A stretch of DNA of 64,000 nucleotides, taken from NCBI GenBank assembly GCA_009785595.1, contig WQVZ01000001.1, positions 149 through 64,148 on the forward strand, in the 5' to 3' direction. The notes under the pieces are model-generated. The model did no database searches. It saw only the letters and a list, made by a program, of their open reading frames with translations, and was not told the DNA's origin. This document shows, piece by piece, positions 3,762 through 63,239 of the stretch (position 1 is its first letter; every line of letters starts with the position of its first letter). A program made the position numbers and the translations under genes. The stretch is from Defluviitaleaceae bacterium. GTDB taxonomy: Bacteria > Bacillota > Clostridia > Lachnospirales > WRAX01.

Positions 3762-3772
3762 ATTTTTATCTA

Positions 3773-3937
3773 CCCTCCCACCAACCCGGCCCCATGACAG
3801 CAAAGCTGTCATGGGGCCGGGTTGGTGGGAGGGCCAGGGGGCCACTTGGGGGCCACCGCGGGCGAAGCCCGCGGTGGCCCCCAAGTGGCCCCCTGGCCCC
3901 AGATTTTTGATGGCCTTCGGCCATCAAAAATCTGGGG
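3773..3937. repeat. triple perfect-palindrome module 1
   Basis: H1 3773-3801/3805-3833 (29 bp, loop AAA). H2 3834-3863/3867-3896 (30 bp, loop GAA, centre GCGAAGC). H3 3897-3915/3919-3937 (19 bp, loop TTC). The hairpins abut with 0 nt between them and have no mismatches (checked by hand). The module lies between convergent genes. Confidence 0.95.
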
Positions 3938-4424
3938 CTTTTAAAAACTTGGTGTGCTTGAGTGCATATCCGGCGATAAGACCTACAAGCACACCAGTAA
4001 GTACTCCGGCTATAATCAGCACAGGAGCATAATAAAACAGGCCCGCGTTTTGCACAATAAGAGCAGCCACTACAATCTGTCCTATATTGTGAAAAACCCC
4101 ACCCCAAACACTTACACCAACCACACCAAAGATTTTCACCCTTTTGGCCAAAACCATGGCAGCATAACTTAAAATACCACCGGACAGACTGTAAGCTACG
4201 CTAAAAGGGGAACCAAAAAGCAACCCTATTGCTACTATGCGCAAGACAGATATGCCAAGAGCCGCTTTGGATCCCATGGCATAAAGGGCCATAACAACTA
4301 TAACATTAGCCAAGCCCAGCTTCACCCCGGGAACAGGTATAGGCATAGGGAAAAGTCTTTCTATATAGGCGGCCACCATAGCCAGCCCGCCCAATATGCC
4401 AAAATATGCTATCTTTTTTGCCAT
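3924..4424 (-). CDS. Gx transporter family membrane protein
   Basis: ORF-track 3924..4466 trimmed to ATG 4424, which has GGGAGAG upstream; the longer start lies inside palindrome module 2. The protein is multi-TM and Gly-rich and resembles the Gx transporter family usually paired with NusG_II proteins. The last codons and the stop lie in the right arm of module 1 hairpin 3. Confidence 0.72.
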   Translation of the reverse strand: MAKKIAYFGILGGLAMVAAYIERLFPMPIPVPGVKLGLANVIVVMALYAMGSKAALGISVLRIVAIGLLFGSPFSVAYSLSGGILSYAAMVLAKRVKIFGVVGVSVWGGVFHNIGQIVVAALIVQNAGLFYYAPVLIIAGVLTGVLVGLIAGYALKHTKFLKAPDF

Positions 4425-4460
4425 CGCGCTCTCCCATTGTTCCACTCTTTTTGTTGATTG

Positions 4461-4631
4461 CCTCAAGGCCGGTTCTACTGTTTCGCGAAGCGAAACAGTA
4501 GAACCGGCCTTGAGGCCTTAGCCCAACCAGAGTGCGCTTTGCGCACTCTGGTTGGGCTAAGGCCTCCCCCTCTCCTCCAGTCATCCCACACCCCCTTTGG
4601 GGGTGTGGGATGACTGGAGGAGAGGGGGAGG
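4461..4631. repeat. triple perfect-palindrome module 2
   Basis: H1 4461-4486/4490-4515 (26 bp, loop GAA, centre GCGAAGC). H2 4516-4537/4541-4562 (22 bp, loop TTT). H3 4563-4595/4599-4631 (33 bp, loop TTT). The hairpins abut and have no mismatches. The module sits between two co-oriented minus-strand genes. Confidence 0.95.
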
Positions 4632-4650
4632 CAAAATTTATATTGCTATA

Positions 4651-9675: not shown

Positions 9676-10674
9676 TCACCGCTTTTTCTTATCCGTACCC
9701 ATAAATTCCACATACCTGCCGGTGCCAAGCGCCACACAGCTTGCGGCAGACTCCGCAATAACGGCATCAATGCCGATTGTATGCTTAATCAGCTTATCCA
9801 GTCCGTAAAGTAGGGCGCTACCACCGGTCATCACCAAACCTCTGTCGGCAATGTCGCTGGCCAGCTCCGGCGGGGTTTTTTCCAGCACAGAATGTATTGT
9901 CTCCATAATGGCCGCCACAGGTTCTTTAAGGGCTTCCAACATATCGTCAGAACTTACGCTTATGGTGCGGGGCAGGCCCGTCACCAGGTTGCGCCCTCTT
10001 ATCTCCATGCGGGCGTCCCCTTGACGTTTAAATGCCGCCCCCACGTTTATTTTCAGTTCCTCAGCCGTGCGCTCACCTATAAGCAAATTATGCCGCTTGC
10101 GCATAAATCTTATAATAGCTTCGTCAAAATCATCACCGGCTGTTTTGATGGAAGCATTAACAACACAGCCTCCCAGAGATATTACGGCCACATCCGTGGT
10201 GCCACCGCCCATGTCTACTATCATAGAACCTCTGGGTCTTGAAATATCAATGCCGGCACCTATAGCGGCAGCTATGGTTTCTTCGATGATGAAAACCTGC
10301 CGCGCGCCGGCAGATTTTGCGGCATCTTCCACGGCCCGCTTTTCAACTTCCGTCACGCTGGTAGGCACACAAACAGAAACCCGCGGCTTGCGCATTGTGC
10401 CTATGCGCCTGCTGGCTTTTTTAATGAAATATTTAAGCATTTGCTCGGTAATTTCGTAATCAGAAATAACCCCATGCCTCAACGGCCGCACGGCCACTAT
10501 ATTACCCGGTGTGCGCCCCAGCATTTTGCGGGCATCATGCCCCACGGCAATAATGCTGCTGTTGGTTTTGTCCACAGCAACAACAGACGGCTCTTCCAGC
10601 ACAATGCCCTTGCCTTTTATATACACCAGTGTATTGGCTGTACCCAGGTCAATGCCCATATCTTCAGAAAACAT
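9676..10674 (-). CDS. mreB: rod shape-determining protein MreB/Mbl
   Basis: 332 aa. GIDLGTANTLVY... actin-like ATPase signature. AGGAG lies upstream. Confidence 0.93.
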   Translation of the reverse strand: MFSEDMGIDLGTANTLVYIKGKGIVLEEPSVVAVDKTNSSIIAVGHDARKMLGRTPGNIVAVRPLRHGVISDYEITEQMLKYFIKKASRRIGTMRKPRVSVCVPTSVTEVEKRAVEDAAKSAGARQVFIIEETIAAAIGAGIDISRPRGSMIVDMGGGTTDVAVISLGGCVVNASIKTAGDDFDEAIIRFMRKRHNLLIGERTAEELKINVGAAFKRQGDARMEIRGRNLVTGLPRTISVSSDDMLEALKEPVAAIMETIHSVLEKTPPELASDIADRGLVMTGGSALLYGLDKLIKHTIGIDAVIAESAASCVALGTGRYVEFMGTDKKKR

Positions 10675-10794: not shown

Positions 10795-12027
10795 TTATCC
10801 CAGTCCCTCCAACACCCCAAAAAACCCCGGAAAACTAACACCAACACAGCCCGCATCTTGTATAACACTATGACCCCGGGCCATCAACGCCGCCACAGCC
10901 AGCGCCATGGCCACCCTATGGTCTTTATGGCTATCAACAGCCGCGCCGTACAAGGGATGCCCCCCATGTATAATCATACCATCCTGTCTGGCCTCTATCT
11001 TAGCTCCCATCTTGCCTAGTTCTCCCGTCATGGCCGCTATGCGGTTGCTTTCCTTTACGGCTAATTCTCCCGCATCTTGTATGATGGTCGCGCCTTCGGC
11101 AAAAAGTGCCGCCACCGCAAAAATCGGCACTTCGTCAATCATACGTGGAACAACATCCCCCGCTACAACCACGCCTTTAAGCACCGATTTTTTCACAAAA
11201 ATATCTCCAACTTCCTCGCCGCACACCACCCTGTGGTTTTTTACCTCAATATGTGCCCCCATACGCCCCAAAGCATCCAAAAGCCCTGTGCGCGTGGGGT
11301 TTACACCCACATTTTCTATGGTCAATCCATCCTCTGCCATCAACACCCCGGCCACAATAAAAAACGCCGCCGAAGAAAAATCACCAGGCACAATAATCTC
11401 CCGCCCTTGCAGATTTCTCCCGCCCATATATTCCATCATAATCTCCGTATGGTTGCGGGTCAGGCCGTATCCCGGCTCCTCTATCCTGGTCTCGCCCTTG
11501 GCATACAGTCCCGCCAGCATTATAGCCGACTTCACCTGGGCACTGTTTATAGGCATTTTGTAATGTATGCCCTGCAATTGTACCCCCGTAATACGTATGG
11601 GCGCAAAATTTCCCTCAATTTTCGCCCCCATTTGCGTCAGGGGCATAACAACCCTGTCCATAGGCCGCCGGCGTATGGACTCGTCCCCATCCAGCACAGA
11701 ATCAAACCGCTGCCCCGCTAACAATCCTGTCAGCAACCTAAGGGTGGTGCCGGAATTCCCCACATCCAGCACACCCTGTGGCGGTCTCATGCTTCGCAAT
11801 CCACGGCCCGTTATACGGGCCGTATTACCATGTATATTAACATCCACACCTAGTTGCCCCAGACAACGGGCGGTGGCCAAACAATCTTCCCCGGGCAAAA
11901 ATCCGGCAATATTCGTCTCGCCCCAGGCAATTGCACCCAAAATAAGTGCCCTATGGGATATAGACTTATCCCCCGGCACCCTGATGCGCCCACCTATGGT
12001 CTTTTTCGGTAAAATTTTCACATTCAT
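10795..12027 (-). CDS. aroA: 3-phosphoshikimate 1-carboxyvinyltransferase (EPSP synthase)
   Basis: ORF-track 10795..12120 trimmed to MNVKILPKK... at 12027, the usual distance before the conserved PGDKSISHRALILGA. There is no SD, and a TGcTATAAT box ends 6 nt upstream (see the promoter feature). Confidence 0.92.
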   Translation of the reverse strand: MNVKILPKKTIGGRIRVPGDKSISHRALILGAIAWGETNIAGFLPGEDCLATARCLGQLGVDVNIHGNTARITGRGLRSMRPPQGVLDVGNSGTTLRLLTGLLAGQRFDSVLDGDESIRRRPMDRVVMPLTQMGAKIEGNFAPIRITGVQLQGIHYKMPINSAQVKSAIMLAGLYAKGETRIEEPGYGLTRNHTEIMMEYMGGRNLQGREIIVPGDFSSAAFFIVAGVLMAEDGLTIENVGVNPTRTGLLDALGRMGAHIEVKNHRVVCGEEVGDIFVKKSVLKGVVVAGDVVPRMIDEVPIFAVAALFAEGATIIQDAGELAVKESNRIAAMTGELGKMGAKIEARQDGMIIHGGHPLYGAAVDSHKDHRVAMALAVAALMARGHSVIQDAGCVGVSFPGFFGVLEGLG

Positions 12028-31449: not shown

Positions 31450-31483
31450 TTGCAGGGGCGACCGTCCTCGGTCGCCCGTTTTT
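31450..31483 (+). terminator. clpX intrinsic terminator, formed by REP-like copy A4
   Basis: TTGCAGGGGCGACCGTCCTCGGTCGCCC: a perfect 8-bp stem and a 6-nt loop, followed by GTTTTT. Confidence 0.7.
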
Positions 31484-33154: not shown

Positions 33155-33178
33155 ACCGGCCGAATAGGCCGGTTTTTT
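33155..33178 (+). terminator. glnS intrinsic terminator
   Basis: ACCGGCC gaata GGCCGGT followed by TTTTT. Confidence 0.8.
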
Positions 33179-33230
33179 ATTTGGATAAAATCTTGCCCAT
33201 TAGAACAGACTATTTTATAACTTTATAAGT

Positions 33231-33414
33231 GGCCCACACTCCACTCCCACCCACCCATTTGGCGGCAAAGCCGCCAAATGGGTGGGTGGGAGTGGAGTGT
33301 GGGCCTGGGGCCGGAGCCCTGGGAGCCGCTGGGGCGCGTAGCGCCCCAGCGGCTCCCAGGGCTCCGGCCCCAGGCCCCGTGGAGAGCAAGCCTACGGCTT
33401 GCTCTCCACGGGGC
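33231..33414. repeat. triple perfect-palindrome module 4
   Basis: H1 33231-33266/33270-33305 (36 bp, loop AAA). H2 33306-33337/33341-33372 (32 bp, loop GTA, centre GCGTAGC). H3 33374-33392/33396-33414 (19 bp, loop TAC). No mismatches. There is one unpaired g between H2 and H3. Confidence 0.95.
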
Positions 33415-35045: not shown

Positions 35046-35054
35046 ACACAAAAA

Positions 35055-35075
35055 GAGCGGCCCGCGTGGCCGCCC
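35055..35075. terminator. bidirectional terminator candidate
   Basis: GCGGCC cgcgt GGCCGC flanked by AAAAA on the left, which gives a T-run for the minus-strand gene. It lies between convergent genes. Confidence 0.5.
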
Positions 35076-35082
35076 TTGCATT

Positions 35083-36871: not shown

Positions 36872-36892
36872 GGTCTTAACAAAAAATATTAG

Positions 36893-37034
36893 TTTGGCTA
36901 GGGGTGCTTTTTGTGTGGTTTGCAAAGGGCTGAGATAATACCCTTTAACTTGATCCGGATAATGCCGGCGAAAGGAAGTTACAGCTAGGTAGTTTTTCTC
37001 TGCCGCCCTCCTTGCCATTCAATTAAAAAGGAGG
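36893..37034 (+). promoter_or_regulatory. TPP (THI-box) riboswitch with SD-sequestering expression platform
   Basis: GGGGTGC ... GGGCTGAGATAATACCC ... ACTTGATCCGGATAATGCCGGCGAAAGGAAG matches the conserved TPP aptamer core. Downstream, CCTCCTT (37007-37013) can pair with the SD AAGGAGG (37028-37034). Confidence 0.88.
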
Positions 37035-37710: not shown

Positions 37711-37740
37711 TAAAACGGGCGGCAAAATGCCGCCCCTACA
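37711..37740 (-). terminator. parB terminator formed by REP-like copy B1
   Basis: The minus strand reads TGTAGGGGCGGCATTTTGCCGCCC: a 7-bp stem and a 5-nt loop, followed by GTTTTA. 25 nt are identical to the copy at 46078-46102. Confidence 0.6.
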
Positions 37741-37775
37741 GAAATTGCGAAACCTGGGGTAGCTTCTTGCTGCCC

Positions 37776-38660
37776 CTACTTTTTTGACTTTTTCACAATA
37801 TCTATAATACGGTTAAGATCTTCTGCAGAAAAATAATTTATCTCTATTTTTCCGCCGCCGCCGGTTTTGTTGTCGCGTATATTTACCCGTGTGCCAAGAA
37901 TGCCGCGCAAATCCATTTGAAAGCTCGTGTATTTTTCTTTGCTTTCGGCAGCAAGCTTTGGCTTTTCTTCTTCCGGCACCTGGCCATCGGCCAGTTTTTT
38001 TGCAAGCTCTTCGGCCGTGCGCACACTAAGGCCCTCTTCCACAATCTTTGCGGCCAGCAGGGTTTGGGCCTCTTGGTCGTCAACAGACAGCAGGGTTTTT
38101 GCGTGACCCATAGAAAGCTCGCCATTTATGATAAAGTCCTGCACCGGGGCTTGCAACCGCAAAAGTCTGATGCAGTTGGTAATATGGCTTCTGCTTTTGC
38201 CCACTTTTTTCGCAATTTCCTCTTGGGTCAAAGAAAATTCTTCGTTAAGCTTTTTGTAGCAATTGGCTTCTTCTATAGGGTTAAGGTCTTCCCGCTGGAT
38301 ATTCTCTATTAGGGCAATTTCCAAAACCTCTATGCCAGAATACTCCCGCACAATCACGGGTATTTTTCCCAGCCCCAGGTGCTGCGCCGCTCGCCATCTG
38401 CGCTCGCCCGCCACAATTACATAATTATCTCCAAATTGTGTCACAATGATGGGCTGTATTATGCCAAATTCTTTTACGGACTCCGCCAGTTCCTCTATGT
38501 GGCTACGGTCAAAGCGTTTTCTGGGTTGGTCGGGATTAGGGTTAATTTTCCCAATTTCCACTTCCAAAACCCCGCCGCTCACCGGTTCGTCATTGGCCTC
38601 GTTATAAGCTATCAATGCGTCAAGGCCTTTGCCCAGGCCTTTTCCTAAGCCTTTTTTCAT
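37776..38660 (-). CDS. parB: chromosome partitioning protein ParB/Spo0J
   Basis: 294 aa. GLGKGLDALI, IIQPIIV and GERRWRAA motifs. Confidence 0.93.
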   Translation of the reverse strand: MKKGLGKGLGKGLDALIAYNEANDEPVSGGVLEVEIGKINPNPDQPRKRFDRSHIEELAESVKEFGIIQPIIVTQFGDNYVIVAGERRWRAAQHLGLGKIPVIVREYSGIEVLEIALIENIQREDLNPIEEANCYKKLNEEFSLTQEEIAKKVGKSRSHITNCIRLLRLQAPVQDFIINGELSMGHAKTLLSVDDQEAQTLLAAKIVEEGLSVRTAEELAKKLADGQVPEEEKPKLAAESKEKYTSFQMDLRGILGTRVNIRDNKTGGGGKIEINYFSAEDLNRIIDIVKKSKK

Positions 38661-38682
38661 GGATATTACCCCCTATTGTTTT

Positions 38683-39450
38683 TTATATCTGCCTTTTCGC
38701 AATAACTTCATGAGCCAAGGCCACATACGCCTCGCAACCCTTAGATTTAGGGTCGTACATGGTTATGGGAAGTCCATGACTGGGTGCCTCACCAAGCCTA
38801 ACATTCCGCGGTATGATGCTTCTGTACACGCTGTCCTCCAGATGAGATTTTACTTCTTCTACCACCTGGGCGGACAGATTTGTGCGAGAATCGTACATAG
38901 TAAAAACCACGCCCTCCAGCTCCAGCCGCTTGTTAAGCCGCTTTTTCACCAATTCTATGGTATACATCAGCTGGCTTAGCCCCTCCAGGGCAAAGTATTC
39001 GCATTGTATGGGCACCAGTATCGAATCCGATGCCGTAAGAGCATTAACCGTAAGCAGGTTAAGGGACGGCGGGCAGTCTATCAAAATATAATCGTAAATG
39101 TACTTCATGTCCACCAATATGCGTTTTAATATGTACTCTCTGTCAGTAAAATTTATCAGCTCTATCTCTGCTCCGGCAAGCTCCACAACAGCTGGCATAA
39201 GGCTTAAATTTTCCACAATGGTAGGTATAATAACCTCATCGGCCCTTTTGGTGCCCAAAAGCAAATCGTATACCGATGCCGCCGTGGCGCGCTTGTCCAC
39301 CCCAAGGCCGCTTGTGGTGTTGGCTTGGGGGTCGGTGTCAATAACCAGCACCTTTTTGCCCTCCAAGGCAAGGCAAGCCGCCAGGTTTATGGTGGTTGTG
39401 GTTTTGCCCACACCACCTTTTTGGTTTGCTACAGAAATAATCCTTCCCAT
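38683..39450 (-). CDS. soj: chromosome partitioning ATPase ParA/Soj
   Basis: 255 aa. Deviant Walker A NQKGGVGKTTTTINLA. Confidence 0.95.
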   Translation of the reverse strand: MGRIISVANQKGGVGKTTTTINLAACLALEGKKVLVIDTDPQANTTSGLGVDKRATAASVYDLLLGTKRADEVIIPTIVENLSLMPAVVELAGAEIELINFTDREYILKRILVDMKYIYDYILIDCPPSLNLLTVNALTASDSILVPIQCEYFALEGLSQLMYTIELVKKRLNKRLELEGVVFTMYDSRTNLSAQVVEEVKSHLEDSVYRSIIPRNVRLGEAPSHGLPITMYDPKSKGCEAYVALAHEVIAKRQI

Positions 39451-42182: not shown

Positions 42183-42208
42183 ATAAAACGGGCGGCATAT
42201 CGCCGCCC
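42183..42208 (-). terminator. REP-like copy B3 / terminator-like hairpin directly upstream of argS
   Basis: The minus strand reads GGGCGGC gatat GCCGCCC followed by GTTTTAT. It starts 3 nt after the stop of the upstream gene and ends ~10 nt before the argS SD. Confidence 0.5.
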
Positions 42209-46077: not shown

Positions 46078-46102
46078 CGGGCGGCAAAATGCCGCCCCTA
46101 CA
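46078..46102 (-). repeat. REP-like hairpin, copy B2
   Basis: The plus strand reads CGGGCGGCAAAATGCCGCCCCTACA, 25/25 identical to 37716-37740. It lies between the DAK2 gene and recG. Confidence 0.85.
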
Positions 46103-51843: not shown

Positions 51844-52277
51844 TTGCCTTGGGATGCGACGGCGCAGGCTATGACCTTATGCAGACCGTAAAAGCCCACC
51901 TGGATAAAAGAAATACACCCTATATGTGCTTTGGCGCGGAAAGCAACGGTCCCAGCGATTTTCCCCTGTTTGCCCAACATGTGGCGGCGGCGGTGCTGGA
52001 CGGCCGATGCGACAAAGGCATAGTAATATGCGGCACGGGCATTGGTATTTCCATTGCCGCCAACCGCTTTGGTAGTATACGTTGCGCACTGTGTCACGAC
52101 GTATTTTCCGCAAAAGCCACACGAGAGCATAACAATTCCAATATGCTGGCAATGGGCGGACGGGTTATCGGCCCCGGCCTTGCTTGCGAAATTGTGGACG
52201 CTTGGCTGGATACGCAGTTTTCCCACGCAGAGCGCCACCAACGCCGCATTGATATGATTGAGGTGACAAATGCTTAA
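51840..52277 (+). CDS. rpiB: ribose-5-phosphate isomerase B
   Basis: 145 aa. IALGCDGAGYDL...ICGTGIGISIAANR. Confidence 0.93.
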   Translation: MIALGCDGAGYDLMQTVKAHLDKRNTPYMCFGAESNGPSDFPLFAQHVAAAVLDGRCDKGIVICGTGIGISIAANRFGSIRCALCHDVFSAKATREHNNSNMLAMGGRVIGPGLACEIVDAWLDTQFSHAERHQRRIDMIEVTNA

Positions 52278-53346
52278 CGACTATATAGAACACTATTGGC
52301 TGCTGTACGTCATCATTTTCGGCGTCGGTTTCGGCATTGCCCTGTTTTTGACGCCCTGGTCCAGGGTGATAAGCATCGCCCTTGGGGCCGTGGCAAAGCC
52401 ATCCCCACGTGGTATGCACAAAAAACCCATACCGCGCATGGGCGGCCTGGCTATTGTACTGGGCTTTATGGCCGCTATGGTTGTTGCCCTGTTTTTTATG
52501 GAAGAACTGCGCACCCTGCAATTTGCCGGCTTCATCGTGGGCGGCATAATCATCGTCGGTCTGGGTATGTTAGATGATATTTACGAGCTTAAAGCCGGCA
52601 TAAAATTTGCCGTACAAATTGTAGCGGCCCTGGTTGTGGTTTTTACCGACACCCGTATCATCTTTGTGGGTTGGCCCCTTCAGGAAGTTTTTACTACATT
52701 TTCCATACCCATCACCATTTTGTGGATCGTGGGCATCATCAACGCACTTAACCTTATTGATGGCGTAGACGGCCTAGCAGCAGGCGTGACGTCTATTGCG
52801 GCACTGTTTCTCACCGTATTATGCATCATGACAGGCAGCCCCCTGGCTGTGGTGTTTGCGGCGGCTCTGGCCGGATCCTGCCTGGGCTTTTTGCCTCGCA
52901 ACTTTAGCCCGGCGGATGTGATAATGGGAGACACCGGCTCTACTTTCCTGGGTTATGTGCTTGCAGTATCCAGTATTATCGGCGTATACAAAAGCTATGC
53001 CGCGCTGTCGGTGGTTATTGTGGTCTTTGCCTTGGCCCTGCCCATACTGGACACAGTTTTTGTGTCCATACGCCGGGTGTTAAGCGGCAAAGCCCCATGG
53101 CGGCCGGATAGGGGCCATTTGCACCACAAACTTATAGACAGAGGCTATTCTCAAAAACAAACAGTGGTAATACTGTATATTGTCAGCATAATTGCCGGTG
53201 GCATCGCCATACTTATTGCCGTACAAGACATTCGTGCCGTCATTATTGGCCTGGTGCTTATGCTGGTGCTGTTTTCCATAATTTATGCCTATAGAAAGAG
53301 GGTGGGCGACCGTGACAAATCAGGTAAATCAGACGAATCAGAATAA
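52270..53346 (+). CDS. glycosyltransferase family 4 (MraY/WecA/TagO-like undecaprenyl-phosphate sugar-phosphate transferase)
   Basis: 358 aa with ~10 TM segments. MLDDIYELK, NLIDGVDGLA and MGDTGS motifs. Confidence 0.88.
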   Translation: MLNDYIEHYWLLYVIIFGVGFGIALFLTPWSRVISIALGAVAKPSPRGMHKKPIPRMGGLAIVLGFMAAMVVALFFMEELRTLQFAGFIVGGIIIVGLGMLDDIYELKAGIKFAVQIVAALVVVFTDTRIIFVGWPLQEVFTTFSIPITILWIVGIINALNLIDGVDGLAAGVTSIAALFLTVLCIMTGSPLAVVFAAALAGSCLGFLPRNFSPADVIMGDTGSTFLGYVLAVSSIIGVYKSYAALSVVIVVFALALPILDTVFVSIRRVLSGKAPWRPDRGHLHHKLIDRGYSQKQTVVILYIVSIIAGGIAILIAVQDIRAVIIGLVLMLVLFSIIYAYRKRVGDRDKSGKSDESE

Positions 53347-54088
53347 ATTCAACCTAAACTTCCGCGTGGGTCTAAACAGTCTGCTGCCAGACAACACCAT
53401 GGCCCTGCCCGGACTGATGGACTATGTGCAAGAAGTCAGTTATTTTCACACGCATTCCATAGACGGCTTGTTTGAATATTACGACCGCATGAACCTTGTA
53501 TGGGTGCTTACCCACTGGCATGTGGAGGTGGCCCGCCAACCCCGTGTGGGCGAGCATATAAACATATCCACATGGCCGGTACAGTTTAAAGGATATTTTG
53601 GCGAACGGGGCTTTGCGGCCACGGATAGTGCTGGCGAAACCATATTGCGCGCCAATTCCAATTGGCTTATGCTGGACCGAAATGTCTTAAAGCCTGCACG
53701 AGCATCAGAAGAACTTATTGCAAAATACGGCCCACCGTACCCTTTTCCAATAGAGAAAAACTTCGCCCTGCCTAAGCCGGACGGCTTTGCGACACTATCC
53801 ACCCACAAATACACTCCCACACGTAGGGATATCGACACCAATAACCATGTAAATAATGTAAGATATCTGGAATGGGTTTGCTGCCACATCCCCGATGATA
53901 TATATCACAACTACCGGGCACAATCCCTAAAGGTGGCCTATAAAAAAGAAACCCTGCTGGGAGATGATCTGGAAATTAAGCTGATGCGGCGGGATTGCGG
54001 CCATGATGGCATAGAAATTTTGGCCATTATCGAGAAAAATGGCCAAACTGCCACGGAAGTTTATACCAAATGGCAGAGCATACAATAA
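53312..54088 (+). CDS. acyl-ACP thioesterase
   Basis: Double hot-dog pattern (LVWVLTHWHVEV...TNNHVNNVRYLEW). The start is uncertain: GTG 53312 behind GAGGGTGGG, or ATG 53285. It overlaps the preceding gene. Confidence 0.8.
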   Translation: MTNQVNQTNQNKFNLNFRVGLNSLLPDNTMALPGLMDYVQEVSYFHTHSIDGLFEYYDRMNLVWVLTHWHVEVARQPRVGEHINISTWPVQFKGYFGERGFAATDSAGETILRANSNWLMLDRNVLKPARASEELIAKYGPPYPFPIEKNFALPKPDGFATLSTHKYTPTRRDIDTNNHVNNVRYLEWVCCHIPDDIYHNYRAQSLKVAYKKETLLGDDLEIKLMRRDCGHDGIEILAIIEKNGQTATEVYTKWQSIQ

Positions 54089-54104
54089 ATATACTATTAA
54101 TCCA

Positions 54105-54136
54105 CGGGGCGCGCACTATGCGCCCCGATATTTTTT
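54105..54136 (+). terminator. intrinsic terminator
   Basis: CGGGGCGC gcactat GCGCCCCG followed by ATATTTTTT. Confidence 0.7.
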
Positions 54137-54214
54137 ACGACAAAACAAATTTGTTGTAATCCCCACAGTTTTTTGGTAAAATAAACACTGATTACTCAAC
54201 ACGAGAGGACAAAT

Positions 54215-56014
54215 ATGCAAAACATACGTAATTTTTCGATAATTGCCCATATTGACCACGGCAAGTCTACCCTGGCGGATAGGCTTATACAAAATTCCGG
54301 CCTGCTGACAGAGCGTGAAATGCAGGACCAAGTGCTGGACAATATGGATTTGGAGCGGGAGAGGGGCATAACCATTAAGGCCCAGGCGGTGCGACTGATA
54401 TATAGGGCCAAAGACGGGCAGGAGTACGTCCTTAACCTTATAGACACTCCCGGCCATGTAGATTTTAATTATGAGGTAAGCCGGTCGCTGGCCGCCTGCG
54501 AAGGGGCCATACTGGTGGTGGATGCCGCCCAGGGGGTGGAAGCCCAAACTCTGGCCAATGTGTATTTGGCCATTGACGAGGGACTGGAAATCGTACCCGT
54601 AATCAATAAAATAGATCTGCCTGCCGCCGACCCACCGCGAGTTATTAAGCAAATAGAGGACATCATTGGCATTGTGGCCAGTGATGCACCCCTTATATCC
54701 GCAAAAACCGGCGTGGGCATAGAGGATGTTTTTGAAAAAATAATCAAAGACGTACCTCCCCCCAGCGGTGATGCAAACGGCACCCTACGGGCACTTATTT
54801 TTGACAGTCTTTTTGATTCGTACAAGGGCGTTATTGTTTTTGTACGGGTTTTTGACGGCGTGCTTAAAAAAGGCGAAAAAATACGCTTTGTGGGCAGTGC
54901 CAAGGACTATGAAGTGGTGGAAGTGGGTATGTTTGCCCCGGGTAATTTTATACCCACAGACCAATTGACCACCGGCGAAGTTGGGTACTTTACCGCATCA
55001 ATTAAAAATGTTGCGGACACACTGCCGGGGGACACCGTTACCACGACGCATAACCCTACCGACAGACCCTTTCCGGGATATAAAAAAGCCACACCTATGG
55101 TGTTTTCGTCTATTTTTCCGGCTGACCGTTCACGATATACAGACTTGCGGGATGCCCTGGATAAATTGGTACTTAACGATGCATCACTCTTCTTCGAGCC
55201 CGTAACATCCGTGGCCTTGGGTTTTGGTTTTAACTGCGGCTTTTTGGGGCTTTTGCATCTGGAAATTATCCAAGAACGGCTGGAGCGTGAATATAATCTG
55301 GACTTGGTTTGCACAGCACCTTCGGTTGTTTACAAAATATACACCACAGATGGCCAGAACAAGGAGATCTCTAATCCCGCGGATTTTCCCGACCCTACAT
55401 TGATAGTGAAAATGGAGGAGCCCATTGTAAAGGCAGAAATTATACTGCCCAGCGGCTATATCGGGGCCATAATGGAAATTTGCCAGGGGCGCCGGGGCGT
55501 TTTCGTGTCTATGGATTATATCGAGGCCGACCGGGCCCGCCTGATATACGAAATGCCCCTTAATGAGATTATCTACGACTTTTTTGACGCCCTAAAGTCC
55601 CGCAGCCAGGGTTATGCCTCTTTTGATTATGAGCTGACAGGCTACAAAGAAAGCGCATTGGTGAAGCTGGACACATATATTAACAGGGAGGTTGTGGATG
55701 CCCTGTCCTTTATCGTCCACAAAGACTCCGCCATAGAGCGCGGCCGCAAGATTGTAGAAAAACTTAAAAAAGAGGTGCCCCGCCACCAGTTTGAAATACC
55801 CATACAAGCCGGCGTGGGTAGCAAAATTGTGGCCCGCGAAACCGTATCAGCCCTGCGCAAGGACGTACTTTCCAGATGCTACGGCGGTGATGTCACCCGT
55901 AAAAAAAAGTTGCTGGAAAAGCAAAAAGAGGGCAAGAAGCGCATGCGGCAAATTGGCAGTGTAGAGCTGCCGCAATCGGCGTTCCTATCTGTACTAAAGC
56001 TGGATGAAGACTAA
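54215..56014 (+). CDS. lepA: translation elongation factor 4 (LepA)
   Basis: 599 aa. [11 protein letters not shown] and DTPGHVDF, with the LepA-specific C-terminal domain. Confidence 0.96.
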
Positions 56015-56026
56015 TCGCTTCGCATG

Positions 56027-56131
56027 CCACGGTTCGTTTACGAACCGTGGACACCCACGCTTTGTTTACAAAGCGTGAAGAAGTACGCTGCGTTAACGCA
56101 GCGTAAAACCCACGGAGCGTTAACGCTCCGT
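56027..56131 (+). repeat. array of four tandem short hairpins (28-29 nt period)
   Basis: u1 56027-56050 CCACGGTTCG-TTTA-CGAACCGTGG. u2 56056-56077 CACGCTTTG-TTTA-CAAAGCGTG. u3 56084-56105 TACGCTGCG-TTAA-CGCAGCGTA. u4 56112-56131 ACGGAGCG-TTAA-CGCTCCGT. Spacers are 5-6 nt. Confidence 0.9.
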
Positions 56132-56155
56132 CATCGCAGGAGTGCCCTATCACCC

Positions 56156-57274
56156 ATGATGCCGTTATCTATTTACATCCATATTCCGTTTTGCGTGACC
56201 AAGTGCGGCTATTGTGATTTTCTGTCCTTTTGCGGAAGGCTGGAGGCCCACGAACCCTATGCGGAAGCCATTATAGCCGATATCGCCGCCTGTGCCAAGG
56301 ATTTTACTGGGCATGAAGTTGTCACGGTGTTTTTCGGCGGCGGCACTCCTACGGTTTTGGCCGCTGGGCAACTGGGGCGTATTTTGGGTACCATTATGGA
56401 TAATTATACTTTGGCCGATGACGCTTCCATAACCACCGAAGCTAATCCCGACACAATAGATGACGCATACTTGACTGTACTCCGCCACGCTGGCTTTAAT
56501 CGTATAAGCTTTGGGGTGCAAAGCTTTAATGACGATTTGCTGGCAAAAATAGGCCGTATTCATAATGCTGAAAAAGCCGTCCGGGCTGTGCATTTGGCCG
56601 CTCGGGCAGGTTTTGACGATATAAATATAGACCTTATGTTTGCCCTGCCCCACCAGAGCATTTCTGATTTTGAGCAATCCGTTGATGTTGCCGTAAAATT
56701 GCCCGTCACCCATATTTCCTGCTACGCCCTGTCGGCGGAAGATGGCACGCCCTTGGCCACCAACAAAGACTTGTTGCGAGCCATGCCGGATGACACTGCC
56801 GACCGAGCCATGTATCATTTGGCCGCCCAAAAGCTGTCCGCCCATGGTTTTGAGCATTACGAAATATCCAATTGGGGCCGCCCTGGCCGCCATTGCAACC
56901 ACAACATAGGCTACTGGACACGGCGGGAATATATAGGCTTTGGCCTTGGTGCCCATTCGCTGGTGCAAGACCGCCGCTTTTGCAGAACAACCAATCTCGA
57001 AGACTATATTAAAGGCAATTTTTTCCCAATACATCTGGAGGACATAACCCACCAGGCCGCCATGGCAGAATTTGTTATACTGGGCTTGCGCCTTGTGCGG
57101 GGCATTGATGTCAATAATTTTAGGCAATGCTTCGGCCAAAACATAGAACATGTTTTTGGGCACCAATTAGAAAAATTTGTTAAAAATGGGCTGCTTGCAA
57201 TAGACAGCCCCAACATTAAACTGACAAAGCATGGGCGGGACCTGTCCAACGCAGTTTTTGCCGATTTTATATAA
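56156..57274 (+). CDS. hemW: radical SAM heme chaperone HemW (HemN-like)
   Basis: ORF-track 56024..57274 trimmed to MMPLSIYIHIPFCVTKCGYCDF at 56156; the upstream extension merely translates the hairpin array. CxxxCxxC radical-SAM motif. lepA-hemW synteny. Confidence 0.9.
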   Translation: MMPLSIYIHIPFCVTKCGYCDFLSFCGRLEAHEPYAEAIIADIAACAKDFTGHEVVTVFFGGGTPTVLAAGQLGRILGTIMDNYTLADDASITTEANPDTIDDAYLTVLRHAGFNRISFGVQSFNDDLLAKIGRIHNAEKAVRAVHLAARAGFDDINIDLMFALPHQSISDFEQSVDVAVKLPVTHISCYALSAEDGTPLATNKDLLRAMPDDTADRAMYHLAAQKLSAHGFEHYEISNWGRPGRHCNHNIGYWTRREYIGFGLGAHSLVQDRRFCRTTNLEDYIKGNFFPIHLEDITHQAAMAEFVILGLRLVRGIDVNNFRQCFGQNIEHVFGHQLEKFVKNGLLAIDSPNIKLTKHGRDLSNAVFADFI

Positions 57275-57296
57275 AACAAGCAGCGAGGTGCAAATT

Positions 57297-59027
57297 ATGG
57301 AATATATGAAGCGATATCAGACCTGGCGTGACAATGACGCCTTTGATGAGGCCACGCGGGCAGAGCTTGCCGCAATTGCCGAAAACAGTGCGGAAATCGA
57401 AGAGAGGTTCCACCAAGACTTGGAATTTGGCACAGGCGGCCTGCGGGGCGTTCTTGGTGCGGGCACAAACCGCATGAATGTATATACTGTGCGCCGGGCC
57501 AGCCAAGGCCTTGCGGACTATATTCTGGCTAATTCGCATGATGGCAGAGAGCGCGGCGTTGTGGTGGCCCACGACAGCCGCCGTTTTTCCCGTCAATTTG
57601 CCCTGGAAGCCGCCCTTGTCATGGTACAAAACGGCATACGTGCCTATATTTTTAAAGACCTGCGCCCCACACCCCAGCTTTCCTTCACCCTTCGCCGCTT
57701 GGGCTGCATTGCCGGTGTGATGATAACCGCCAGCCACAACCCGCCGGAATACAACGGATACAAGGCATATTGGACCGATGGCGGCCAGTTTGTGCCGCCC
57801 CAAGACGCCGAAGTTATTGCCTGTGTTAATAAAATTGAGGATTTAACCGGGTTAAAGGCCGCCGACGAGGTCGAGGCCATACGCTCCGGAATGCTGACAA
57901 TTTTGGACGAAAGTTTTGACGACGAATACAAACAAACCGTGCTGGCCCAAATCCTTAACCCGGGCACCATACAGGCCATGTCGGATGATTTTACCATAGT
58001 ATACACCCCCCTAAACGGCGCGGGCAATATGCCTGTGCGCTGTGCGCTAACCGATGCAGGCTTTAAGCACATACATGTGGTGACCCAACAGGAGCAACCC
58101 GACCCCAATTTTACCACCCTGTCTTATCCCAATCCCGAAGATCCGGCGGCCTTTGCCTTGGCAGCGACCCTAGCGCAAGAAAAAAACGCCGATATCATAA
58201 TCGCCACAGACCCCGATGCCGACCGCATGGGGGCCATGGTGCGGGATGCTAACGGCGAATATCAACTGCTAAGCGGCAATATTACCGGGGTGTTAATGGC
58301 AGAGTATGTAATGTCCCAACAGCAGCAAAAAGGCATACTGCCCGCCAATGCCGCCATTGTGTCCACCATTGTGTCCACCAAACTTACCCGGAAAATTGCA
58401 AAACATTACAACGCCGCATATTACGAGGTGTTGACGGGCTTTAAATTTATTGCCGAAAAAATACACCAGTGGGACACAAACGGCCAGCACACCTTTGTGT
58501 ACGGATTCGAGGAAAGCTACGGCTATCTGGCAGGCCACGCCGCACGGGATAAAGACGCCATTATAGCCTGTGTGCTTATTTGTGAAATCGCCGCCTGGTA
58601 CAAATCCCGCGGCATGAGCATTTTTGATGGCATTGATGAAATTTATCGCAAATACGGCTATTTTAAAGACAGCGTGCGCTCCGTTACCCTAAAAGGCCTT
58701 GAAGGCCTGGCAAAAATACGTGGCATTATGGCTAATTTGCGGGAGAATATCCCCGCTTCCATAGCCGGCATCGGCCTGGAGGAGTTTCGCTGCTACAAAA
58801 CCTCCACCACCCACAATCTTATCACCGGCAACACGAGCCAAATAACCCTACCAACCAGCGATGTGCTGTATTACACCCTGGCGGACGGCAGTTGGTTTTG
58901 CGTACGCCCATCGGGCACCGAACCTAAGATAAAAATATATATGGGCGTAGCGGGGGATTGCGGCAAAACAGCCCAGGCCAAGCTGGATGCCCTGTCACAC
59001 GCCGTGGCTGATTTGATAGGAGTATAA
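57297..59027 (+). CDS. phosphoglucomutase/phosphomannomutase family protein
   Basis: Start trimmed to MEYMKRYQTW at 57297, with GAGGTG upstream. Active-site loop TASHNPPEYNGYK. Confidence 0.9.
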   Translation: MEYMKRYQTWRDNDAFDEATRAELAAIAENSAEIEERFHQDLEFGTGGLRGVLGAGTNRMNVYTVRRASQGLADYILANSHDGRERGVVVAHDSRRFSRQFALEAALVMVQNGIRAYIFKDLRPTPQLSFTLRRLGCIAGVMITASHNPPEYNGYKAYWTDGGQFVPPQDAEVIACVNKIEDLTGLKAADEVEAIRSGMLTILDESFDDEYKQTVLAQILNPGTIQAMSDDFTIVYTPLNGAGNMPVRCALTDAGFKHIHVVTQQEQPDPNFTTLSYPNPEDPAAFALAATLAQEKNADIIIATDPDADRMGAMVRDANGEYQLLSGNITGVLMAEYVMSQQQQKGILPANAAIVSTIVSTKLTRKIAKHYNAAYYEVLTGFKFIAEKIHQWDTNGQHTFVYGFEESYGYLAGHAARDKDAIIACVLICEIAAWYKSRGMSIFDGIDEIYRKYGYFKDSVRSVTLKGLEGLAKIRGIMANLRENIPASIAGIGLEEFRCYKTSTTHNLITGNTSQITLPTSDVLYYTLADGSWFCVRPSGTEPKIKIYMGVAGDCGKTAQAKLDALSHAVADLIGV

Positions 59028-59029
59028 GT

Positions 59030-59725
59030 ATGATACGCAATTATGACGATTTTTTACAAAACTTGCTGTCCGCCGGTTTTTCCATGGGCGGCGGCAATGA
59101 TGATGGCATTTACGCCATTATACCATGGGGCTGGAACCAAGTGCCAACCCACGACACCCCCATAGCCTGGCACACCGGCAACCCGGACACCGACCCGTGG
59201 GAGTGGCGTATGCGGGTGCTGGATGAGCGCAATGACATTGCCTATGCCAAGGTATTTTTCAAAAAAAGCGGCTTCATTACAACCCAATGGTATCCATATT
59301 TTCTGGCAGCCCGCCGTGAGGGCAACACCTTTGCGGAAGCCTATGCCGATGGCACCATGAGCCATACCGCCAAACGCATTTATGATGTAGTGGCCAAAAG
59401 CGGCACTTTGCCGGTAGAAGCTATTAAGCAGCTGGCAGGCTTTGGCAGAGAGGACAAAGCCGCTTTTGACAGGGCGCTGACAGAGCTGCAAATGGGTTTG
59501 TTCATCACCATGTGCGGTAGCCGGCAAAAAATATCCCAAAAAGGTGAGGAGTACGGCTGGTCATCCACAGTATTTTGCACCACAGAAAGCTTTTTTGACC
59601 AAGAAATCTTCGCAAAAGCCGCAGAAATAGGCCCCACCGAAGCCCATGCAGCCATTAGAGAGCAGATTTTAAAACTAAACCCGCAAGCCCAAGATAAGAA
59701 GATAAGTAAATTTATATTAGGATGA
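59030..59725 (+). CDS. conserved hypothetical protein
   Basis: 231 aa. AGGAG lies upstream, and the gene is tightly coupled to the preceding gene by a 2-nt gap. No confident family assignment. Confidence 0.6.
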   Translation: MIRNYDDFLQNLLSAGFSMGGGNDDGIYAIIPWGWNQVPTHDTPIAWHTGNPDTDPWEWRMRVLDERNDIAYAKVFFKKSGFITTQWYPYFLAARREGNTFAEAYADGTMSHTAKRIYDVVAKSGTLPVEAIKQLAGFGREDKAAFDRALTELQMGLFITMCGSRQKISQKGEEYGWSSTVFCTTESFFDQEIFAKAAEIGPTEAHAAIREQILKLNPQAQDKKISKFILG

Positions 59726-59730
59726 CACAA

Positions 59731-59761
59731 ATACAGGGGCGGCCAACGGCCACCCCTGTAT
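59731..59761. terminator. long triloop hairpin between convergent genes
   Basis: ATACAGGGGCGGCC aac GGCCACCCCTGTAT: 14 bp with one mismatch and a 3-nt loop. Confidence 0.45.
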
Positions 59762-59813
59762 AACTATTTTGTCATCTCATTCGACACACATAGCTAAAAA
59801 TCCATATGATTCA

Positions 59814-60413
59814 TCATGTTCTGGCAAGGGTTGTTGTCGTAATTTCGCCCCAAGAATCCATAATTAAAACCAAGGTGTCACCGTTTATTTCGGCGGTCAT
59901 AACCACATTATCCCAGGGGCTGTCGCCAAATATCATGCGCAGGTCGGCTCCTTCGGCCCGCCAGGTGGCATTTTCCGTTGCGCCATCCTCAATCAAAACA
60001 AGATTGCCACCGGTCAAAAACTCGAAATAGGCATCTTCGAAATATTCCACATGCCTTTCATTTAAGCCCGGATGTGTCATTTCCACGGACACCATGCGCC
60101 ATTTGCCCAGCAATTGGGTGGTGTCAATGGGTTTACGACCTATATATACCGTGTTGGTATCATCGTCCCAGTCCACAGGAAGATCCAGGGCGTAGGCCAC
60201 ACCGCGGACGGGTAGGTATGTGCGGTCGTTGGATATAAAGGGGCGCATGTCCGGCGCAAAGTTAACAGCTCGGCCATTGACCACTATATTCACGCCATAA
60301 AGCACTTCCCGCATGGTACCGGGGTTGGCCACCACCACGGCGGCAGAAGATATTATCGTGGCCAGTACAAAACCCAGTACAAAGCCTTTCATTCTTTCTT
60401 TGGATTTTTTCAT
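59814..60413 (-). CDS. secreted protein with copper amine oxidase N-terminal-like (stalk) domain
   Basis: 199 aa. Signal/anchor sequence, then ...NIVVNGRAVNFAPDMRPFISNDRTYLPVRGVAYAL, typical of the stalk domain. GGAGGAG lies upstream. Confidence 0.65.
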   Translation of the reverse strand: MKKSKERMKGFVLGFVLATIISSAAVVVANPGTMREVLYGVNIVVNGRAVNFAPDMRPFISNDRTYLPVRGVAYALDLPVDWDDDTNTVYIGRKPIDTTQLLGKWRMVSVEMTHPGLNERHVEYFEDAYFEFLTGGNLVLIEDGATENATWRAEGADLRMIFGDSPWDNVVMTAEINGDTLVLIMDSWGEITTTTLART

Positions 60414-60543
60414 TTTTTTAACTCCTCCTTTGTCGCCCCCATTTTATCACATGCCAACCCGCAATGCAACCGCAAACACATGGCAAAAACCACGGAAAAT
60501 TTCACAAAGATTTATAAATACAGTAAAAACGAGGAGGCCTTTT

Positions 60544-62199
60544 ATGAAAATCCAAACCAAGCTTGCGGCACTAAGTCTTGCATTGACCTTTGCCACCAGC
60601 ACCATCAGCTTTCCTGTGCTTGCGGACACCACACAAGTTTCAAGAAGTTTCGAAATCGCAAATCCCTATGAAAATGTGGACTGGGATACTTTCGGACAAT
60701 TCAAAGCCGCCCACCATACCCACACCACTTTTTCGGACGGCAGCAACACCCGCAGAGACATGTTGTTGGACAAGTATGCAAAAGGCTTTGACATCGTTGC
60801 CATTACCGACCACGATACCACCACACCTGCCTGGAATTTGCCTCCCGGGCCCGGCAGCCGGAACGATAATTGGAACAACATAGGTACGGCGATTTTAGGC
60901 TCACTGGAGCTTTTAGCAACGGAAGCGGGGTTAGGCGCAGGCCATGCTCTTTCACCCGGCACATACAGAGGCATACGCCAACAAGCCAACGGAATGATTG
61001 GCATAAGCTATTCCAACGAAATCGCTGTACAGCGCGGCTTTTTAAATGAAGACGGCACTACCGTATACCGCGGCTATCACATCAATTCTTTTTGGGCAGA
61101 TGTGCCTGGCAACATTGGTAGCGGCAGGACGATGCAAGAAGTTATCCGGGCAGTTCAAGACGCCGGCGGCATCACCCATCTTAACCACCCCGGCCGTTAC
61201 ACAGGCGCGCAACATAACGCAGCGTTATCCAAAGACCCCGCCCACATAAACAGACACGTATCTTTGTTCATGGAATTTCCGTCCTTAATAGGCATGGAGA
61301 TCATTAACAAATGGGATGGCGAGTCCATAAACGACAGAATTTTGTGGGACCAAATATTAATGCAAACCATGCCGCAAGGCAGACCGGTTTGGGGCTTCTC
61401 TAACGATGACTCCCATTCGTTGTCTGGCAACGGCCATGCATGGAATGTAATGCTTATGCCCGAACTTACCGAAGCAGCCACCCGCATCTCCATGGAAACC
61501 GGCGCATTTTATGGTGTAAGCCGTGTTGACCGCGTACACGGAATTAACACTGTGATAAATGGTGTAAATGTCCCCGGCGCACCCGCTCAAACCACAAACA
61601 CTGCAACTCAACATACAGGCGGTGCGCACAATGAGATGGCTCTGGCAATGCTTGCCCAGCCCGATGCTCCAAGCATCTCAAACATCGTGGTTGGTTACAA
61701 CACCATTACCATCAGCGGCGCAGATTTTAACAGAATAGAATGGATTGCCGACGGTGTGGTTGTGTATACCGGAACCTCTATTGATGTGAGCGCAGTTGCT
61801 GGAATAAATAGCTATATCCGCGCCGAATTAATAGGCACATACGGCGTCGCGTACACTCAGCCTTTTGGGATAACGGCTCCTGCCCCTAAATTTAGTCTTA
61901 ACATCTTCAACAACGGAAACTCTAACAATGCATCTTTGGCTAATTTGGGTGTTATCCGTATGTGGGCTCAACTTGACGGCACAAATGCCTTGGCACCGTA
62001 TGCCAGCCTTGAAATAACCGCCGAATTAACCTGCGGAGCCGATGCAAAGGAGTTTGTCCGCATCAACCGCGCTTGGAACAACACATCTTATGTCAACCTA
62101 ATTGATGTACGAAAAACCCGGGATTGGCAGCAAATAAACTTTACAGCAACCCTCTTCGGCCAAACCATAAATGTGCTTCTTGTCAATGACACATTATAG
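60544..62199 (+). CDS. secreted PHP-domain phosphoesterase-like protein
   Basis: ORF-track start trimmed to MKIQTKLAALSLAL at 60544, with GAGGAGG upstream. Signal peptide and PHP His motifs (AAHHTHTTFSDGS, VAITDHD). Confidence 0.7.
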   Translation: MKIQTKLAALSLALTFATSTISFPVLADTTQVSRSFEIANPYENVDWDTFGQFKAAHHTHTTFSDGSNTRRDMLLDKYAKGFDIVAITDHDTTTPAWNLPPGPGSRNDNWNNIGTAILGSLELLATEAGLGAGHALSPGTYRGIRQQANGMIGISYSNEIAVQRGFLNEDGTTVYRGYHINSFWADVPGNIGSGRTMQEVIRAVQDAGGITHLNHPGRYTGAQHNAALSKDPAHINRHVSLFMEFPSLIGMEIINKWDGESINDRILWDQILMQTMPQGRPVWGFSNDDSHSLSGNGHAWNVMLMPELTEAATRISMETGAFYGVSRVDRVHGINTVINGVNVPGAPAQTTNTATQHTGGAHNEMALAMLAQPDAPSISNIVVGYNTITISGADFNRIEWIADGVVVYTGTSIDVSAVAGINSYIRAELIGTYGVAYTQPFGITAPAPKFSLNIFNNGNSNNASLANLGVIRMWAQLDGTNALAPYASLEITAELTCGADAKEFVRINRAWNNTSYVNLIDVRKTRDWQQINFTATLFGQTINVLLVNDTL

Positions 62200-62200
62200 C

Positions 62201-63001: not shown

Positions 63002-63239
63002 ATCTCCACCTCGAAGTTACGACTTGTTCCATTATTATTCCGTAACATCGATATTTTATGACAGGTTTTACTTATGCGGTTCTGCGCTCTGTTGTTTCAC
63101 CCAAAACGACACCTTCCTTCTTACGCGCTCAATTGCGCCGCATGTTATATCATCTGACATAATAAATGCCAAGAGAACATACACAAATATGCACAATTTT
63201 GTGGTGCAAATGTCACCAATATTTGTGCAATATTTCCAA

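Follow-up and report, generated by a model that had tools for sequence, protein, structure and literature searches.

Contiguous triplets of perfect hairpins in the intergenic gaps of an uncultured gut bacterium: a candidate class of extragenic palindromes defined by structure

The gap between two convergent genes of an uncultured gut bacterium, a LytR-CpsA-Psr (LCP) gene and a Gx-transporter gene, is occupied by three abutting hairpins. The DNA is a 64,000-nt stretch (the window) of Defluviitaleaceae bacterium contig WQVZ01000001.1 (assembly GCA_009785595.1), and an inverted-repeat search places the element, module 1 (M1), at 3773-3938, with each hairpin 100% complementary around a 3-nt spacer. 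A preliminary description treated M1 as a local oddity, a treatment that can no longer be kept: M1 is one copy of a four-member class with a fixed architecture. We tentatively favor the explanation that this is a lineage-specific class of extragenic palindromes defined by structure and not by sequence, in which perfection is kept by copying within a strand. The sample is about 73 kb of one genome.

The window contains 12 perfect hairpins with stems of at least 12 bp, all of them in four triplets (M1 to M4), against none in five shuffles of the window, and chance is thereby excluded. The stems range from 19 to 50 bp, and the hairpin units from 41 to 103 nt. Every module has exactly three hairpins (4/4). 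All 12 loops are 3 nt long, are closed by C-G, and read AAA, GAA, GTA or their complements (the R-N-A class; P~6e-8); loops and stem apices together include GCGAAGC and GCGTAGC, a hyper-stable DNA mini-hairpin motif. Neighboring hairpins have 3-5 basal nt in common in all four modules (P~2e-9), and the scheme of a module can be written a-X-loop-X'-a'-Y-loop-Y'-a-Z-loop-Z'-a'. Neither mismatches nor G·T pairs occur anywhere in the 371 bp of stem. When hairpins of at least 14 pairs with up to 3 mismatches were sought in the window, only the same 12 came back, indicating that the window holds no decayed copies.

In M1, hairpin 1 (3773-3833, plus strand) is a 29-bp perfect stem (arms 3773-3801 and 3805-3833) with the loop AAA and a C-rich 5' arm of 17 C and 4 G. 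Hairpin 2 (3831-3899, plus strand) is a 33-bp perfect stem (arms 3831-3863 and 3867-3899) with the loop GAA, the apex GCGAAGC and a G-rich 5' arm that contains the tandem repeat GGGGGCCAC; at full extension it overlaps hairpin 1 by GGG (3 nt) and hairpin 3 by GCCC (4 nt). Hairpin 3 (3896-3938, plus strand) is a 20-bp perfect stem (arms 3896-3915 and 3919-3938) with the loop TTC and 55% GC, followed by TTTTAAAAA; its right arm carries the APDF codons and the stop codon of Gx. The preliminary description had given stems of 29, 30 and 19 bp with 0 nt between them and a module end at 3937. These are the same structures tiled without overlap, whereas the maximal stems are 29, 33 and 20 bp, share 3 and 4 nt, and end at 3938. 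The loops AAA, GAA and TTC were the same in the inverted-repeat search, and the start had rightly been placed 11 nt past the stop of the LCP gene (PF03816; 2730-3761, plus strand), whose open reading frame (ORF) ends at 3761.

The other three modules are built alike. M2 (4460-4632, sense strand minus) consists of hairpins at 4562-4632 (34 bp), 4512-4566 (26 bp) and 4460-4516 (27 bp), with 5 nt common to neighbors at the junctions (GCCTC/GAGGC). It begins 18 nt past the NusG_II stop and ends 35 nt ahead of the Gx ATG, and likely sits inside the spacer of a NusG_II-Gx operon. M3 (26305-26525, plus strand), with hairpins at 26305-26371 (32 bp), 26368-26470 (50 bp) and 26467-26525 (28 bp) and TTT in all loops, occupies the convergent gap between RidA and an M23 peptidase, 4 nt from the RidA stop and 7 nt from the M23 peptidase stop. 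M4 (33231-33414, plus strand), with hairpins at 33231-33305 (36 bp), 33301-33377 (37 bp) and 33374-33414 (19 bp) and the loops AAA/GTA/TAC, lies 82 nt past the stop of a GlnS-type tRNA synthetase gene, beyond the canonical terminator of that gene (33155-33173, followed by a T-run), and 26 nt ahead of the YkuD ATG. A putative promoter at 33193-33221 (TTGCCC, 17 nt, TATAAC) would put the transcription start within a few nt of the point where M4 begins; if it is real, the YkuD mRNA would open with M4 at its very 5' end. The four modules all lie in transcribed intergenic spacers and begin 4-82 nt past the stop of the upstream gene on the same strand. M1 and M2 are 520 nt apart and oppositely oriented, which indicates that orientation tracks transcription and not replication. 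No target-site duplications or consistent flanking inverted repeats were found at the four modules, and the module ends match over 3-5 nt only.

The 5' arm of the first hairpin is C-rich and G-poor (17-22 C versus 2-6 G), and that of the second is G-rich in three of the four modules. The third hairpin is the shorter one in three of the four, with a lower mean GC, and loop orientation is sense/sense/antisense, again in three modules of four. GC content is 55-86% in the arms and 45-53% in the surrounding genome region; the arms are of low complexity, rich in G-runs and C-runs, and modestly enriched in short internal repeats (p=0.02). Beyond composition, arms are unrelated between modules: the best of 18 arm-to-arm tests (p~0.008) is at chance after correction for multiple testing, and global, arm-wise and base-versus-apex alignments with shuffles leave intermodule homology marginal, with a weak hint of relatedness between the hairpin bases of M2 and M3 (Fisher p=0.026). 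The four modules had no match by BLAST in phage and plasmid collections, nor had two arms by exact scan in IMG/VR; the arms are therefore not captured foreign sequence. As side observations, 8 of the 14 G-quadruplex-type motifs in the window (four runs of at least three G) lie in the 1.2% of the sequence that belongs to the modules (for example 3813-3833, 26384-26416 and 33280-33303), and within the arms GGCC (12 observed, 4.5 expected) and CCWGG (5 observed, 1.2 expected) are enriched over composition; CCGG and GCGC are not.

The class appears to be lineage-specific. Relatives were sampled through 2 GTDB loci, 26 JGI loci and 9 loci from exact-protein look-ups (about 357 kb), with ortholog-flanking DNA drawn from GTDB, JGI, ENA and Logan; 8 further loci belong to the source organism. 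The nearest sequences in the protein collection have about 73% amino-acid identity (Gx, M23 peptidase). In the approximately 357 kb of relatives there were no long perfect GC-rich triplets, with about 20 expected at the density of the window (P~3e-9), and in one relative (L045) the GlnS-YkuD spacer is 59 nt, versus 292 nt in the window. The convergent LCP/Gx spacer of relatives holds clusters of DnaA-box-like 9-mers (TGTGGATAA, TGTGGAAAA, TTTTCCACA; L003 ~11040-11160, L007 ~10600-10645, L011 ~10550-10585). The spacer in the window is without these 9-mers because M1 fills the gap.

At its right edge M1 enters a gene. The minus-strand neighbor (3924-4424) is a Hpre_diP_synt_I / Gx-transporter gene (Pfam, E=4e-39) with a translation ending in ...KAPDF*, and its last codons and TGA stop (3924-3926) lie inside the right arm of hairpin 3, as first described. 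The APDF tail had been suspected to be lineage-specific, and an alignment of 18 homologs bears this out. Similarity stops just past the last membrane helix, the tails vary in length and sequence, and none of the 17 homologs aligned with it ends in APDF; the overlapped codons are thus lineage-specific and unconstrained. At the other end of the gene, a mechanically called ORF (3924-4466) begins at TTG 4466, reaching into M2, while the recorded ATG at 4424 is preceded by GGGAGA. The real start is the ATG at 4424, since the 166-aa product is what the record holds. The palindromes also give rise to spurious ORFs (3766-4107 and 26015-26479 on the minus strand, 3811-4032 and 26287-26619 on the plus strand). 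Those at M1 had been dismissed as mirror translations, and they are indeed absent from the gene calls of the record and overlap the Pfam-supported Gx gene.

The lack of G·T pairs in 371 bp of stem bears on the level at which the hairpins are maintained. Selection on RNA only would tolerate G·U pairs, and therefore the constraint is Watson-Crick on both strands; it operates at the level of DNA, or of a copying process, rather than solely on RNA. We propose that intrastrand copying of the DNA would keep the stems perfect and lengthen them, either through template switching across the folded hairpin (quasipalindrome correction) or through arm-to-arm conversion. A change in one arm would then be erased or copied to the other, so that arms could diverge freely between modules and never within a hairpin. 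Loops would shrink down to a minimal stable triloop, and stems would grow until they met the neighboring hairpin or constrained sequence, leaving shared basal nucleotides. Modules would in this way take up whatever neutral space there is, reaching the ends of genes or intruding a little into them. In M1, growth would have gone 15 nt into the unconstrained Gx tail, leaving the palindrome with the last codons and the stop; it may have overwritten the original Gx 3' end, or the left arm may have been copied from the native end. Slippage followed by copying to the other arm would produce the short internal repeats. The all-or-none perfection of the stems and the unrelatedness of the copies match the pattern behind a conversion proposal made for Nematomorpha, to which we return below.

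An example of what such growth may look like is found about 2.7 kb past the end of the window, where a lone 18-bp perfect hairpin stands between convergent genes (L009 6239-6277). It has a REP-like (repetitive extragenic palindromic) GC core, GGGCGGCC-AGT-GGCCGCCC, and 10 AT-rich perfect bp outward of it, and has the look of a stem that grew outward as the flank was copied in inverted form. It makes plausible that the native Gx end was the template for the left arm in M1.

Several points weigh against arm copying as a full account. Both the conversion and the RNA role discussed below are inferences. Copying of AT-rich flanks cannot yield arms of 55-86% GC, which leaves the origin of the arm sequences unexplained. 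Pure local growth predicts neither exactly three hairpins nor the order of C-rich then G-rich arms nor, in three of four modules, the sense/sense/antisense loops; the fixed number, order and loop pattern suggest that the modules share an origin or are made by a dedicated process. A role in termination is doubtful, because three of the four modules are without a U-tract and one is inside an operon. The sample, finally, is about 73 kb of a single genome. With the origin of the arms, the number of hairpins and the C-rich and G-rich order unexplained, explanations by mobile elements and by fold-back synthesis stay alive.

Mobility is a possible, though rather unlikely, explanation. The modules would be non-autonomous elements, REPIN/BIME-like (REPINs being inverted REP doublets; BIME, bacterial interspersed mosaic element) or MITE-like (miniature inverted-repeat transposable element), moved by a transposase encoded elsewhere. 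An enzyme that reads single-stranded hairpin structure, such as a RAYT or an IS200/IS605-type Y1 transposase, would act on them, and perfect stems would reflect recent copying. The three-part architecture and orientation common to the four copies would follow, and the absence of target-site duplications is as in IS200/IS605-type elements.

The palindromic elements of this lineage lend the mobile explanation some support. Relatives carry classical GTAG-tagged REPs, for example GTAG-GGGCGAGC-tgt-GCTCGCCC; true GTAG-tagged hairpins occur on the minus strand of the window at 37717-37739, 37756-37779 and 46079-46101, which makes a RAYT in this genome plausible. GTAG-tagged REP-like hairpins (e.g., GTAGGGGCGGCATTTTGCCGCCC) were also noted at 42190-42208 of the window and at many sites in L011, L023, L032 and L046. 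A survey of GTAG REPs lists Proteobacteria, Cyanobacteria, Chloroflexi and the PVC (Planctomycetes, Verrucomicrobia, Chlamydiae) group (PMC3733652), and their presence in Firmicutes, here in the class Clostridia, may be unreported. Relatives also carry a dispersed multi-hairpin MITE-like element with the terminal inverted repeat (TIR) GGGGAGTGCCGGCTRAAGCCGGCTGAAG and compensatory stem changes between species (L011 9852-9990 and 14640-14690, the latter on the minus strand; L046 14962-15100; L003 11650-11740; L040 1100-1150). In L011, L003 and L040 a copy occupies the NusG_II-Gx spacer, the very one that holds M2 in the window; the window has no copy of the element with this TIR. The REPs of window and relatives, and the MITE of the relatives, mark the lineage as prone to extragenic palindromes, of which the triplets are its own extreme form.

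Against mobility stands, above all, the near-complete lack of sequence common to the copies, beside which there is a weak hint in its favor of conserved hairpin bases in M2 and M3 (Fisher p=0.026). The module ends have no GTAG/CTAC tag, and their terminal inverted repeats are only 3-5 nt. Neither the near-identical copies expected from recent copying nor the decayed stems expected of old copies are seen. No mobile-element gene turned up either: a Pfam scan of 47 of about 60 window ORFs, leaving out 141-908, 22647-22895 and 52270-64000, gave no match to a transposase, reverse transcriptase, primase or RAYT-type protein, and the record's own Pfam calls, the only coverage of the last 12 kb, include no transposase or RAYT-type match there. 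The scanned ORFs are housekeeping genes, among them MetK, HIT, LCP, RecD2, MreB, EF-G, MetRS, RF1, trigger factor, ClpP/X, ParA/B, ArgRS and RecG.

A second alternative, de novo writing by sequential fold-back (snap-back) self-primed DNA synthesis into intergenic gaps, is improbable but accounts at once for the perfect stems, the C-G-closed R-N-A triloops, the 3-5 nt junctions and the unrelated arms. A 3' end would fold on a GC-RNA-GC mini-hairpin, copy its own strand back, stall once it had entered the frayed base of the preceding hairpin by 3-5 bp, and then add new sequence rich in G- and C-runs; three such cycles would produce a unique three-hairpin module per event. Low-complexity arms with G-runs and C-runs fit reiterative or untemplated synthesis, and the arms are without a match in phage, plasmid and viral collections. 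Conversion, however, covers the same features. No candidate enzyme is in view, no bacterial process is known to insert such products into chromosomes, and a further assumption would be needed to account for the position-specific order of C-rich then G-rich arms.

A purely transcriptional explanation is improbable. M1 lies between convergent genes and has TTTT after hairpin 3, and might be a bidirectional intrinsic terminator of unusual strength, or one of the "cluster-hairpin" type; it has been proposed that clusters of contiguous hairpins terminate independently of a U-tract (PMC8355165). Hairpin 3 had been singled out as a conventional bidirectional terminator, but it proves a weak candidate: its four T are followed downstream by A5, and a terminator scan did not call it. 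It was also considered as an ancestral terminator and rejected, the LCP/Gx spacer of relatives holding the DnaA-box-like repeats and no hairpin. Nor do such structures resemble the ordinary intrinsic terminators of the window, which have 7-10 bp stems and T-runs (e.g., 31456-31477, 33155-33173, 35053-35077 and 37717-37735). The form of a canonical intrinsic terminator (a stem of about 5-14 bp, a loop of 3-8 nt and a U-tract directly downstream) is not that of the modules. M2-M4 have no T-run on the sense strand, and being distinct from ordinary terminators the modules constitute a separate class, of which termination cannot be the general role. The earlier view that the two longer hairpins of M1 are surplus to termination is in keeping with this. 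Termination at M2, between the co-transcribed NusG_II and Gx, would silence Gx, and M4 comes after a canonical terminator. Cluster hairpins are defined as two or more hairpins with stems of 2-10 bp, lying within 15 nt of one another in an inter-operon region and coinciding with an RNA-seq 3' end (PMC8355165); the modules are contiguous in this sense, but their stems are 19-50 bp, and M2 is intra-operonic. An RNA function, moreover, needs neither the absence of G·U pairs nor stems of 50 bp.

An effect on RNA may nevertheless accompany copying within the strand. M1 folds at -182.5 kcal/mol as RNA (z = -19 versus dinucleotide shuffles) and at -113.7 kcal/mol as DNA. Transcribed from either strand, it would form a block of about -180 kcal/mol that stops exonucleases and hinders convergent read-through. 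By their positions, the modules would be extremely stable RNA blocks at the 3' ends of upstream messages, with M2, and perhaps M4, forming part of 5' leaders too. A plausible role, already proposed for REPs, would be to block exonucleases and dampen read-through. Such an effect may be tolerated and not selected.

That the palindromes are artefacts of assembly or sequencing, an imperfect palindrome having been "perfected" by de Bruijn-graph fold-back or bubble-popping, is very improbable, even though the source is a MEGAHIT metagenome contig (ENA ERZ27257300, k141_366381; 87,098 bp) and palindromes are trouble spots for de Bruijn graphs: independent Logan contigs (k=31, run SRR10512955) carry the same genes, one of them (L016) spans the whole of M1 hairpin 1, each arm lying in a unique k-mer context, and IMG holds an 87,079-bp version of the contig. 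Breaks fall just where arms exceed k, at the apex of M1 hairpin 2, whose arm is 33 nt, and, in contig L018, at the apex of the first hairpin of M3 (32 bp). As a de Bruijn graph should break in this way at true palindromes, a MEGAHIT-specific artefact is excluded. In addition, the four modules fall precisely in intergenic gaps with intact flanking genes, and their arms are not copied from flanking sequence. It was observed that short-k assemblies stop exactly at the apex when a hairpin arm exceeds k, leaving the flanking genes on tiny contigs; such breakage may hide elements of this kind in public short-k assemblies.

Three further features of the window lie apart from the modules. A thiamine pyrophosphate (TPP) riboswitch at 36890-36993 (66.8 bits) precedes a Thia_YuaJ thiamine transporter gene. 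Adjoining ParB/ParA genes (37776-39450) suggest an origin-proximal chromosomal region. The LepA-HemN spacer (56084-56131) holds two tandem, fully palindromic 20-mers, ACGCTGCGTTAACGCAGCGT and ACGGAGCGTTAACGCTCCGT, which differ by a dinucleotide change that is compensated in both arms.

Extragenic palindromes are usually explained by a transposing sequence family. Here it is the geometry that is conserved (three perfect hairpins, shared junction bases, minimal stable triloops), and the sequence is free. Geometry without sequence implies that a bacterial chromosome undergoes either continuous copying from arm to arm or self-templated synthesis de novo. There is a small but real chance that the modules report a new self-templating DNA-writing process; if fold-back synthesis were true, it would be a de novo sequence-generating mechanism that is neither transposition nor duplication. 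If confirmed, the modules would offer a natural system for studying the origin, upkeep and tolerance of long perfect palindromes (up to 103 nt) despite hairpin-cleaving nucleases, for asking how palindromes overwrite gene ends, and for asking whether REP-like elements arise without a transposase. Annotation of metagenome-assembled genomes is affected as well, since the modules break short-k assemblies and yield spurious ORFs.

Among known systems, the modules are closest to REP/BIME clusters. These too are GC-rich extragenic stem-loops, clustered head-to-tail or inverted, found past stop codons or between convergent genes and occasionally overlapping gene ends, with proposed roles in mRNA 3' protection and termination; all four modules have such extragenic locations. 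REP/BIME units, however, are short (20-40 nt), imperfect and tagged with GTAG or CGTC, and form high-copy sequence families. The module hairpins are 41-103 nt and 100% complementary, an unpaired GTAG or CGTC tag is absent at all stem ends of the 12 hairpins, and in the DNA sampled from this genome arm alignments between copies are at chance. REPINs likewise form a long hairpin from extragenic palindromic DNA and are thought to move as single-stranded DNA, but they occur as near-identical quasispecies around a master sequence and have bulged stems, whereas the modules are unbulged, lack a master sequence and come strictly as units of three hairpins.

The MITE of relatives resembles M2 in its NusG_II-Gx location and its several tandem GC-rich hairpins, and differs from the modules in its 6-8 bp stems, conserved sequence, clear TIRs and several recognizable copies. 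Compared with MITEs in general (TIRs of at least 10 bp, target-site duplication, recognizable copies), the modules have matching ends of 3-5 nt and copies that cannot be aligned. Cluster-hairpin terminators (Gupta and Pal, 2021; PMC8355165) are similar in having contiguous hairpins less than 15 nt apart past a stop, with no U-tract required; they are imperfect RNA hairpins of 2-10 bp, and leave the perfection, triloops and shared junctions unexplained. At the gathering threshold, Rfam returned only the TPP riboswitch in the window and no family for the modules, which at permissive E-values had sub-threshold generic hits to miRNA-precursor hairpins only.

The closest parallel to the inferred copying comes from the mitochondrial DNA of Nematomorpha, which has long perfect inverted repeats for which Mikhailov et al. 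proposed active arm conversion by template switching (PMC6649704). As in the modules, perfection is all-or-none, sequences are unrelated and coding sequence is overlapped; the palindromes are gained and lost dynamically and are possibly parasitic (PMC6649704). Unlike the modules, they are mitochondrial, lie inside genes, are not GC-rich relative to their host and do not form triplets with shared bases (PMC6649704). In bacteria, template switching turns quasipalindromes into perfect palindromes, an established mutational mechanism in E. coli (PMC7202029). It lends the modules a candidate stem-perfecting mechanism, although it is known as a point-mutational hotspot and not as a generator of 160-220-nt modules (PMC7202029). 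GCGNAGC is an extraordinarily stable DNA mini-hairpin motif (PMC13037366), which gives a physical reason for C-G-closed R-N-A triloops; it is known as an in vitro motif, not as a module generator (PMC13037366). Our literature searches turned up no account of long perfect hairpins that are grouped strictly in threes and share their junctions. The modules act most like REP/BIME clusters but do not qualify as members of that class; they are best regarded as a new variant of extragenic palindromic elements, one that is defined by structure.

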